64,000 bases of DNA from the sequence record PP925835.1; one strand, 5' to 3'. This DNA comes from Escherichia phage Nernie. Below are positions 56,365 to 59,193 of this stretch, in pieces (position 1 is the first letter of the stretch; every line of letters begins with the position of its first letter). Under the pieces are notes generated by a model, which made no database searches, was not told the origin of the DNA, and was given only the letters and a program-made list of their open reading frames with translations. Made by a program: the position numbers and the translations under genes.

Positions 56365-59193
56365 TTAGTCGTAATATTTCAAACCAGAAATGAATTTCGA
56401 TCCCCAATCCGCACTTGCGGCGTTGAATGACAACATCCAAGTAGTAGCTGTGCCAGTGAAAATCTCTCTTTGCACAGTTCCATCTGTGTGGTAAATATCC
56501 ACGCCAGTGTGTCCGTTCTTAGGAATAGTGAAGGTGGCAGCACTATCTGTGTCTCGTGCATAAGTACAAACAAATGGTGTCCCCGCCCAAACTGGGTTTG
56601 TCATATCACCCATTTCAAGTTGTGGAACCCAAGCAATAAGACCTCCAGTGCCATCTCCTGCAAAAGTGTCTGATCCACTGGCATTCAAAGCTATAATCTC
56701 ATAAGTCATAGAGGCTTGTTTAGCAATCGTTACTTTATGTAAGATTACACGATACCAACCATTCCCCATGTCGATCATATTTGCATCTGTGCCTGTAAAT
56801 GTTCCAGCTTCAAGATCATAAGTCCCTTCGTTAACCTCATCTCCTGAAGTCAATTTGAGCTTGACTTTAGTGATCCCGTCTGGTTTCAAGAATACAGATG
56901 CAGCCCATTGTTTACCTGCTGTAATATCAGAAGCTGTATTCACCGCTGATAAAATATGTTGTCCTGAAGTTGTAGAAGGTGTTAACTTGTAAGTGTTAGC
57001 TGTAGTTCCAACAGGAGAGTTGATTGTTGATGCTGTAACTGTCAAGTTCGTCTTCAACCACGGGGAAGCTGTTGTCAAGTTATTGTTGATAAAGATATAT
57101 GTACGGCTGGCTGCTACAACACGTCTACCTTGTGGCGTTGTACCAATATATTCTAAAGGTGCTATAGGAGCAGAAACCTCTGTCGGTACAAGGATATCTC
57201 CAGAAGCCCTAGCATAATGGTTGCTCCTGTTTACGCGCACATCTGCTGGAAGAGTTTCTTGTGTCAAATCATAATCCATCACGACAGGTTTATCTTCTAC
57301 TTTTCCTGCTGTAACGTTAACATTAAAACGTACTAAAGGAGATAACACATCATTTGCTTCGTCATAATATGCAACATCAAATACCGTAGTTCCTGCTGCA
57401 AAACCATATTGTTCTACTTGATCTGCATAGGTAAACGTATAACTGTTCGTATTAAGCGTTTGTTCAGTTAATACAGATGCTGTTAAGACGTTAATATTAC
57501 GGAAGTAGTGTTTACTATAGCCTTGAGCATCCCATGCTAAAATTGTATCTTGATTAGATTGGGAAGTAGCTGTTGCTCCAGTTGGAACAGCCATATCAAC
57601 CCAAACAGGTGACGTTGATGTTAGGTCTGTACCGTCTGCTGCTGATTTAGCAAGTTTTGTAGCTGCTGTTTGGTATACAGAAGAAATATAATGGATACGA
57701 CCATCAATACCTTCTTCATAAACATAACCACTGTAACGTTCAGCACCATCTACCCAAGAACCAATGATAACATCATCACGTGCTGTAGAGATGGTTCTTT
57801 GTACATTTCTGTACTTCTGCCAATCCACACCATTAACTTCTACACCATATAAGTAAGAACGTCCCAGGATCTGCCAAACAATTTTTGCTTGAGAAGCAGG
57901 AACTATTGTACGCATCTTATCAAAGATAGCTATCGTAGCATCATGGTAACGTGTAGTGTTACTGTATCTACCTGCAACAGTTGAAGATGCTGATACAGCA
58001 TCATTTTCACCTTGTCCCCAAATAATGGCTTTAACCTTACTTGCATAAGGTGTGACTTTAGTGATAAAGTTAGTTAAGCATGGCCCATCTGCTGTGTTAT
58101 CCAGATCATACCAGTAGTTGTCTGGTGTACCTGTTCCAGCTTTATCGTCAGCATATTTATCTGCTGCTGATGATCCAGAAGCTGTATTTAACGGAAGAAC
58201 TTCAGCCTTTGCTAAACCACGTTGCGTAGCATATGCATTACGGGCTGTTGTGCTACTCATTGCTGCTTTATTTGCACCAGATAGTTCTGTAAAGTGTGCA
58301 TTTACGTTATCTTGTCCAGCAAAAACAATAACTTCTTTAATGAACGAATCATCTGTAGCTATTGAGTTATTAAAGATAACGGCTGCTGCTTTGGTGCTCT
58401 TAACGCTAATTTTAAGGTATGTTGGAGCAAACCCATAAAGAGGAATAGAGTCAGAGATATCAAAGTAAGCGTAAGTATTCGTGGTTGTTGTAGTCCACTG
58501 AACACTATTATTACTTAAATCTAATACTTCTACAGTATAAGTATCACCATCTAGCGGATCAGCTACATCCCAAGCAACACGAACGTCTCCATAGCTGTTT
58601 GCCACGGCTGTTACATTAGAAATAACAGGAATAGCATTAACACCTAAATAAGAACTATCAGAGGCCACCACTGTTCCTTGATAAGTTGCAGTACAACCTA
58701 TACGGCAATTACCATCTTTAAGAGCAGTTATTAATCCTGTAGGGCTTACAGTAGCTACTTCTGGATCTGTTGTGGTGTACGTAATTACCATGTCTGGAAG
58801 ATCTTTAGCACCTTCTGGACTGATTGTAGCAACCAACTGTTGAGTAGTGCCTACATCCATAGCTGATAGACTTTCAGTGTACACGCTTAATTCTGAAGCA
58901 TAACCACCAGATTGATCAGTTAAGACAGCACCTAAATTATTTTTAGCTGTCATTATTGCATCAAAACCACCTTCGGCAACAAACTCCATCATACCACTAT
59001 TATCTATAACCATTTTGGTATTATCTGAAGATGAAAAAGCTATATCAAATAACGCACCATCTTCCGGTGAAACTGTGTATGTCAGTTGCTTTTTACTACC
59101 AACTATTGCAATACCAATAGATGAAGTGGTTATAGATGTAGCTGTTACTACTGAAGCTGATGTTGTTGACATAAATAAAGGAATAGGATACAT
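56365..59193 (-). CDS. tail fibre/tailspike protein with Big_2-like and SGNH/sialate-O-acetylesterase-like domains
   Basis: 942 aa; Ig-like segment ...VATVSPTGLITALKDGNCRIGCTATYQG; esterase-like blocks VIVFAGQDNVNAH and IIWGQGENDA; Thr/Ser-rich beta-rich regions. Confidence 0.55.
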   Translation of the reverse strand: MYPIPLFMSTTSASVVTATSITTSSIGIAIVGSKKQLTYTVSPEDGALFDIAFSSSDNTKMVIDNSGMMEFVAEGGFDAIMTAKNNLGAVLTDQSGGYASELSVYTESLSAMDVGTTQQLVATISPEGAKDLPDMVITYTTTDPEVATVSPTGLITALKDGNCRIGCTATYQGTVVASDSSYLGVNAIPVISNVTAVANSYGDVRVAWDVADPLDGDTYTVEVLDLSNNSVQWTTTTTNTYAYFDISDSIPLYGFAPTYLKISVKSTKAAAVIFNNSIATDDSFIKEVIVFAGQDNVNAHFTELSGANKAAMSSTTARNAYATQRGLAKAEVLPLNTASGSSAADKYADDKAGTGTPDNYWYDLDNTADGPCLTNFITKVTPYASKVKAIIWGQGENDAVSASSTVAGRYSNTTRYHDATIAIFDKMRTIVPASQAKIVWQILGRSYLYGVEVNGVDWQKYRNVQRTISTARDDVIIGSWVDGAERYSGYVYEEGIDGRIHYISSVYQTAATKLAKSAADGTDLTSTSPVWVDMAVPTGATATSQSNQDTILAWDAQGYSKHYFRNINVLTASVLTEQTLNTNSYTFTYADQVEQYGFAAGTTVFDVAYYDEANDVLSPLVRFNVNVTAGKVEDKPVVMDYDLTQETLPADVRVNRSNHYARASGDILVPTEVSAPIAPLEYIGTTPQGRRVVAASRTYIFINNNLTTASPWLKTNLTVTASTINSPVGTTANTYKLTPSTTSGQHILSAVNTASDITAGKQWAASVFLKPDGITKVKLKLTSGDEVNEGTYDLEAGTFTGTDANMIDMGNGWYRVILHKVTIAKQASMTYEIIALNASGSDTFAGDGTGGLIAWVPQLEMGDMTNPVWAGTPFVCTYARDTDSAATFTIPKNGHTGVDIYHTDGTVQREIFTGTATTWMLSFNAASADWGSKFISGLKYYD

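Follow-up and report, generated by a model that had tools for sequence, protein, structure and literature searches.

The window analysed here is a 64,000-nucleotide stretch of Escherichia phage Nernie (PP925835.1), a Justusliebigvirus (phi92-like, Stephanstirmvirinae) myophage of E. coli. On its minus strand, positions 56365..59193 hold a complete coding sequence for a 942-residue accessory tail (lateral fibre) protein, the coordinates of which match one open reading frame (ORF) exactly. This protein had been proposed, from the DNA letters alone, to be a fibre whose SGNH-type esterase domain deacetylates a surface polysaccharide receptor and thereby defines host range; we refer to this proposal as the original prediction. 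We found that the central domain (residues 283-535) is a genuine SASA/CE6-type SGNH fold, in which the catalytic serine is replaced by Asp295, and that the C-terminal module is an exchangeable cassette recombined between phages. With moderate confidence, we consider the protein to be a composite, in which a former esterase would serve as a non-catalytic scaffold and the C-terminal domain would confer specificity.

Overall architecture of the 942-residue protein

The protein is organized into consecutive domains, all encoded on the minus strand. Residues 1-188 (58630..59193) comprise a conserved N-terminus (MYPIP...) followed by two Ig-like domains, which match Pfam Big_2 in two stretches (E 9.7e-14). 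The MYPIP sequence is invariant in the alignment, and is presumed to anchor the protein to the tail. The Ig-like part also matches the PHROGs families "major tail protein" and "structural protein with Ig domain". Residues 189-282 (58348..58629) form linker domain 1, a probable β-sandwich with an "NSYGDVRVAWD" motif that corresponds to a recurrent "SWGDV" module found before each SASA-like copy in homologues. A phmmer search of residues 186-280 against the PDB returned nothing significant, and a single-sequence AlphaFold prediction of residues 182-640 was not used, with a predicted local distance difference test (pLDDT) score of 34.6, so that linker domain 1 has no confident model. The SGNH-fold domain (57589..58347) comes next, delineated by profile search, family alignment, an AlphaFold2 model and Foldseek. 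It is followed by linker domain 2 (residues 536-630; 57304..57588), which is homologous to the repeated C-terminal domains of phage N4 gp65 (phmmer against the PDB, 9lc0_I, E 6.2e-12, three stretches), and by the exchangeable and presumably receptor-binding C-terminal module (residues 631-942; 56368..57303). The ORF and the large tail protein with Ig-like repeats, encoded in a tail gene cluster, are therefore as originally described.

The central domain adopts an SASA-type SGNH fold

Direct searches of the protein against Pfam and NCBIfam gave no significant esterase match, and PHROGs gave just "tail protein". The Pfam SASA profile (PF03629) scored 14.3 bits against a gathering threshold of 24.8 (E 0.031), spanning only block III (residues 374-433). 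Of the two Pfam families named in the original prediction, Big_2 was matched outright; homology to SASA was established transitively. An exhaustive HMMER scan was needed, as a word-indexed protein search yielded only six relatives. Run with residues 280-535 against 1.84 billion representative sequences, it retrieved 79 relatives at E <=1e-3, 35 of them below 1e-10. The SASA gathering score was passed by six of the eight relatives tested (P0031, P0045, P0082, P0024, P0046 and P0014), at 26-51 bits. P0049 was excluded; its 24 repeats align partially with the profile owing to biased composition, and the protein is of the cadherin-like repeat type.

The AlphaFold2 model of the domain, computed from an alignment of 35 copies, has a mean pLDDT of 95.5 and a predicted template modelling score of 0.93. 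It displays the three-layer α/β/α fold with a parallel sheet that characterizes the SGNH hydrolase superfamily. Membership in the SASA family follows from the relatives that pass the Pfam threshold, together with this high-confidence model. Within the SGNH enzymes, SASA members are distinguished by a Gln beside the nucleophile and by an (H)QGE block III replacing GxND (PMC9487903). Both hallmarks are present here, as Gln294 and the W-G-Q-G-E-N-D stretch. The block I peptide VIVFAGQDNVNAH is found at residues 288-300 and the block III peptide IIWGQGENDA, which bears the (H)QGE motif, at residues 390-399 (57997..58026); the family alignment bears out their original assignment to SGNH blocks I and III.

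Compared to the SASA/CE6 enzymes, the domain has a conserved family-specific insert, NYWYDL...GP, and is embedded in a presumed virion protein. In the phage-associated SASA-like family, the strongest conserved motif is this insert, NYW[WY]D(L)....PGP.L (residues 359-371), rather than a catalytic block. It stays even in copies without any catalytic residue, and may belong to the fold core or to a ligand site.

The nucleophilic serine is replaced by Asp295

From the relatives, 100 domain copies were taken and aligned to the family hidden Markov model, 93 of which are aligned at the nucleophile position. The family consensus reads GQSN..H / W.QGE.D / D..H(Y), and its stretch "vfaGqsnaeg" aligns with the GQSNMAG of the solved SASA enzymes 1ZMB and 2APJ. 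Position 295 is Ser in 68 of the 93 copies, Asp in nine and Ala in five; eight of the nine Asp copies come from coliphages, being of the Nernie or Av-05 type. The model places residue 295 where strand β1 gives way to a helix, as the helix's first residue; in SGNH enzymes this is the nucleophile elbow. The Nernie protein has G-Q-D-N at block I, with Asp295 encoded by the GAT codon at 58309..58311. In this it differs from the SASA/CE6 O-acetylesterases (PF03629), including E. coli NanS (PDB 3PT5), At4g34215 (PDB 2APJ) and CAC0529 (PDB 1ZMB), where the equivalent residue is the catalytic Ser. All five coliphage orthologues checked share the Asp: EmilieFrey, KMB37, muut and phi92 have FAGQDNVNAH, and Av-05 (Avunavirus) has FAGGDNAAAH, as do the metagenomic sequences P0001-P0005, which are 41-49% identical. 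Since the same Asp recurs across these phages and relatives, it does not stem from a sequencing error.

Across the family, loss of the serine is accompanied by loss of other catalytic residues. The 17 copies without Ser keep the block V His in 7 and the block II Gly in 4 cases, compared to 57 and 52, respectively, of the 60 copies with Ser. The Av-05 clade is decayed further: block I reads GG-D-N, block II has Ile or Ala instead of Gly, LGE stands in place of QGE, and P0001 and P0002 carry Gln instead of the His. We know of no SGNH or SASA enzyme that acts without the block I Ser. The SGNH mechanism proceeds via an acyl-serine intermediate (PMC9487903). Because Asp295 takes the place of this nucleophile, canonical deacetylation is not expected, and the domain, judged from its sequence, most likely lacks canonical O-acetylesterase activity. 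The enzymatic deacetylation of the receptor put forward in the original prediction is therefore not borne out. An alignment lacking the Ser/His/Asp triad had been named there as a refuting outcome, and for the Ser this is what the alignment showed, with His501, Gln294 and QGE retained.

Several observations weigh against a simple loss of function. The remaining pocket residues are kept: Gln294, Gly340, QGE, Asp398 and His501. Gly340, within NTASGSSAADK, is the block II Gly of the oxyanion hole. His501, within IDGRIHY (CAT codon at 57691..57693), is the block V His, and in the model lies in the loop ahead of the last helix. The nearest Asp upstream of it is Asp497 (D-G-R-I-H), one residue beyond the DxxH spacing; NanS likewise has no Asp three residues upstream of its block V His (PMC9487903). 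Moreover, Asp295-Asn296 is invariant between two clades that are just 41-48% identical. The intact pocket and the invariant Asp-Asn pair look more like selection on the pocket than neutral decay, and the conservation could reflect an ability to bind a ligand, or else a non-canonical activity. Across 54 phage records the SGNH-like domain shows 97.7-99.6% identity, and its ratio of nonsynonymous to synonymous divergence (dN/dS) within the genus is 0.05-0.08, an estimate of low power given the little divergence in the genus (dS 0.05-0.09; two to four amino-acid changes).

These features would suit an active but non-canonical carbohydrate esterase, in which Asp295 and His501 activate water as a general base, or Asp295 itself acts as a carboxylate nucleophile, so that the fibre would deacetylate a surface polysaccharide. 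The intact pocket, the Asp-Asn pair and the strong purifying selection on the domain argue for such an enzyme, as does the Phold-type annotation of orthologues as "tail carbohydrate esterase". We nevertheless consider it improbable, given the need for an acyl-serine, the lack of any Ser-independent precedent known to us and the parallel loss of Ser and other catalytic residues. Of similarly low probability is the idea that Asp295 functionally replaces Ser in an otherwise intact SASA pocket, creating a new type of Asp/His SGNH esterase on a virion fibre that acts on an acetylated E. coli surface glycan; in a weaker version, the esterase would have become a natural "substrate trap" and serve as an acetyl-sugar lectin. 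A canonical Ser-His-Asp esterase could also be envisaged if another serine supplied the nucleophile, such as Ser339, Ser341 or Ser342 in block II, or if the alignment were off by one. The several serines of NTASGSSAADK would allow for it, yet we regard it as very improbable, with Asp295 placed at the elbow by both the alignment and the model.

Comparison with receptor-modifying SGNH spikes

Phage appendages whose SGNH esterases deacetylate the receptor are already known, namely G7C gp63.1, the Vi-phage spikes and the Moo19/B2 spikes. We take all of these to have an intact Ser-His-Asp triad, and the Vi-phage acetylesterase spikes to be active as esterases. Deacetylase or esterase activity has been reported for G7C gp63.1, an O-antigen deacetylase (PDB 4QNL), and for the Moo19/B2 spikes, whereas the 942-residue protein has no Ser and no catalytically competent triad of the G7C gp63.1 type. 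These receptor-modifying appendages are distant fold matches from a different SGNH subfamily, with ~10% identity. Spikes and fibres of the G7C gp63.1 type are homotrimeric; the nearest relatives of the Nernie protein, N4 gp65 and the Rcc01080 fibre of the Rhodobacter capsulatus gene transfer agent (RcGTA), have a single chain per unit.

Relationship to the tail sheath protein gp65 of phage N4

Among solved structures, the central domain is closest to phage N4 gp65 (PDB 9LC0 and 9YF4), which forms the non-contractile tail sheath and binds the receptor. The family profile matches gp65 with an E-value of 1.4e-76 in two domain copies (residues 435-602 and 730-980), and Foldseek superimposes the domain model on gp65 with a template modelling score of 0.77-0.80. 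The similarity extends beyond the SGNH fold: residues 189-630 of the Nernie protein, that is linker 1, the SGNH domain and linker 2, are homologous to the repeating unit of gp65. An "NSYGDVRVAWD"-type motif also precedes the SASA-like domains of gp65-family proteins, and the order of an SASA-like domain followed by gp65-type linker repeats is present in the 942-residue protein.

The two proteins differ at their ends. The N-terminal region of N4 gp65 comprises NCTSP_N and TIM-barrel_NCTSP domains and contains a GMSHY motif that has been linked to the recognition of the N4 glycan receptor (NGR). gp65 further has two SASA-like copies, and Ser is kept in the first (FAGESQ). By contrast, the Nernie protein begins with Big_2 domains, ends in a GTA-spike-fibre domain and has Asp at the corresponding position. 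NCTSP_N (PF23844) and TIM-barrel_NCTSP (PF23845) were not found in it at E up to 1. The GMSHY/TIM-barrel region that gp65 and phi92 gp142 have in common is absent from the ORF and from the whole window, and no second SASA-like copy is present. In the relatives P0008, P0009, P0011, P0015 and P0081, NCTSP_N and TIM-barrel_NCTSP stand in front of the same module, and P0015 and P0081 also end in a GTA_spike_fiber domain, so that the combination of an SASA-like domain with GTA_spike_fiber is common to these two and the 942-residue protein. By sequence comparison, the latter retains the last two-thirds of a gp65-type architecture that is widespread, with two Big_2 domains in place of the N-terminal part.

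In Justusliebigvirus, NGR recognition has been assigned to another fibre, of the phi92 gp142 type, which shares the GMSHY-containing region with gp65 (bioRxiv 10.64898/2026.04.02.716166; see also PMC8594841, PMC8669472). We did not assign NGR recognition to the 942-residue protein, because it has neither the GMSHY motif nor the TIM barrel.

A separate observation concerns N4 itself. The first SASA-like copy of gp65 (residues 435-602) spans profile positions 4-165 only, and residues 17-77 of the small sheath subunit gp64 match positions 176-236, including an "IGQIHF" block V (E 0.0014). The gp64-like metagenomic proteins P0018 and P0063 likewise start with a C-terminal SGNH fragment. The gp64-gp65 heterodimer of N4 may therefore be held together by a single SGNH domain split over two genes.

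The C-terminal module is an exchangeable cassette

Residues 674-886 are homologous to Rcc01080, the head-spike fibre of RcGTA (phmmer against the 6TB9 chain sequence, E 1.5e-13), and residues 695-865 score 74.1 bits against the NCBIfam family GTA_spike_fiber (NF048003), well above its cut-off of 36. Rcc01080 is a single flexible chain that binds capsular polysaccharide (PMC7296036, PMC10218006). It sits on the capsid vertices of the gene transfer agent, whereas in the Nernie protein the domain ends a protein of the tail cluster of an E. coli myophage.

The module varies independently of the rest of the protein. Compared to KMB37, 112 of its 308 positions differ (dS ~1.5), against 10 of 630 in the remaining protein. 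Conversely, it is 92% identical to that of phAPEC8_00180, a protein with a Big_2 part but no SGNH domain. As it is swapped or missing between phages and homologous to the RcGTA fibre, the module is most likely the site of glycan recognition and host-range specificity. The host-range role of the original prediction is accordingly more plausible for this exchangeable domain than for the esterase-like one. Two points call for caution: glycan binding is extrapolated from a distant homologue, with ~20-25% identity read by eye, and in 6TB9 that homologue, Rcc01080, is resolved only at residues 2-10 (PMC7296036).

Orthologues and natural alleles

Orthologues of the gene include bas61_0035 of EmilieFrey (Bas61), the "tail carbohydrate esterase" of KMB37 and phi92 genes 152+153. 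In DNA comparisons, seven records, among them EmilieFrey (Bas61) and JohannJBalmer, match the gene at 97-99% identity, and many others at ~91%. Depositors annotated bas61_0035 as [quoted passage not shown], and other orthologues as "tail protein"; the label "tail carbohydrate esterase" is already in GenBank for two orthologue records, KMB37 and ALITA. Four 146.4-kb "Campylobacter phage" records (MG065639, MG065645, MG065656 and MG065689; host C. jejuni) carry the gene ~99% identical to that of Justusliebigvirus coliphages, and are probably mislabelled or contaminant genomes.

The phi92 orthologue is broken (NC_023693, 6390-8052): residues 1-198 are intact, residues 199-272 are deleted and a frameshift lies near residue 335. 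It has been split into two doubtful annotations, gene_152 ("lambda protein V like fold") and gene_153 ("no RBS, weak prodigal statistics", RBS denoting ribosome-binding site), and represents either a pseudogene or a sequencing error. Given this deletion and frameshift, the gene appears to be dispensable in at least one phage. The muut allele (3001-4887) encodes 628 residues and ends without the C-terminal module. phAPEC8_00180 (1714-4389) has a ~400-residue N-terminal extension, a Big_2 region (62% identical) and the C-terminal module described above. By their sequences, the muut and phAPEC8 alleles qualify as natural domain-shuffled variants.

Proposed role of the protein

We propose that the 942-residue protein forms a lateral part of the tail of a phi92-like myophage, in an accessory and probably non-essential capacity. 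Its domains follow one another like beads on a string: a short, presumed N-terminal anchor, two Big_2 domains, a linker, the SASA/CE6-type SGNH domain, a second linker and a domain of the GTA head-spike-fibre type. The N-terminus (MYPIP...) would dock the protein to the tail, and the Ig-like, linker and SGNH domains would form a rigid, jointed stalk. The SGNH domain would be a descendant of real acetylesterases that lost its nucleophile (Ser to Asp295) and would now serve, under purifying selection, as a rigid scaffolding element, much as in the gp65 sheath. As Asp295-Asn296 and the remainder of the pocket are conserved, the domain may still accommodate a sugar. The swappable, lectin-like C-terminal domain, judged from homology and mosaicism, would bind a host surface polysaccharide and set the specificity.

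Alternatively, the protein might not be a receptor-binding fibre and instead have a structural or decorative function in the tail, like the sheath of N4 gp65 or the Ig-like domains that decorate tail tubes, with neither the SGNH-like nor the C-terminal domain setting host range. Such a role would agree with the homology of residues 189-630 to a sheath protein, with the PHROGs matches of the Big_2 part, with the "lambda protein V like fold" annotation of phi92 gene_152, and with the viability of both phi92 and muut, in which the gene is broken or C-terminally truncated. However, N4 gp65 is itself a receptor-binding protein (PMC13434306), the C-terminal domain comes from a family that binds capsule in RcGTA, its cassette-like exchange is typical of specificity domains, and the gene sits amid tailspike and fibre genes. 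On balance, a purely structural role seems unlikely, though less so than an active esterase of any kind, and we favour the composite protein with a C-terminal specificity domain.

Genomic context

The gene is the final one of the tail-fibre operon on the minus strand. It is preceded by a ribosome-binding site, AAGGAG (59199..59204, minus strand), located by direct sequence reading 5 nt ahead of the ATG. A G+C-rich stem-loop, AAGCCCCTTCGGGGGCTT (59212..59229, minus strand), separates it from the gene of a 653-residue collagen-like fibre (59233-61194, minus strand), which has a Tail_spike_N (TSP1/Gp66) N-terminus, collagen-like GxK/GxD repeats and a weak Fibritin_C match. Further upstream, 61236-63650 of the same strand encode a colanic-acid-degrading (colanidase) tailspike of the phrog_6117, phi92 gene_150 type. 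Immediately 3' of the stop codon, a terminator-like hairpin (56338..56361, minus strand) lies between the 942-residue gene and a convergent plus-strand gene, and could act as a bidirectional transcription terminator. The gene is thus flanked by two G+C-rich hairpins (56338-56361 and 59212-59229), a cassette-like layout that is consistent with the module exchange seen among phages. On the plus strand, a gene for a Dam-like N6-adenine methyltransferase (55210-55941) converges on the tail operon, and shares 44 nt with the next plus-strand ORF (55898-56329).

Implications for phi92-like phages

The esterase label of orthologues in GenBank predates this analysis, and our literature searches, which included the papers on the phi92 group, found no paper on the function of the 942-residue protein. 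Nor did we find a prior description of this SASA-type subfamily, shared with N4 gp65, nucleophile-less in coliphages and joined to a GTA-spike-fibre module. For this gene, the public name "tail carbohydrate esterase" is probably misleading.

The very broad host range of phi92-like phages, for which they are studied and used, has been credited to a "Swiss army knife" of tail enzymes. What differs from phage to phage in the present protein is its C-terminal, lectin-like module, which it shares with a gene transfer agent; this indicates the module to swap in host-range engineering. If the Asp variant were active after all, it would represent a new catalytic solution in a large hydrolase superfamily. 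In our preferred reading, phage tails have reused an enzyme fold as a bead for structure or binding, and N4 gp65 shows the same tendency.

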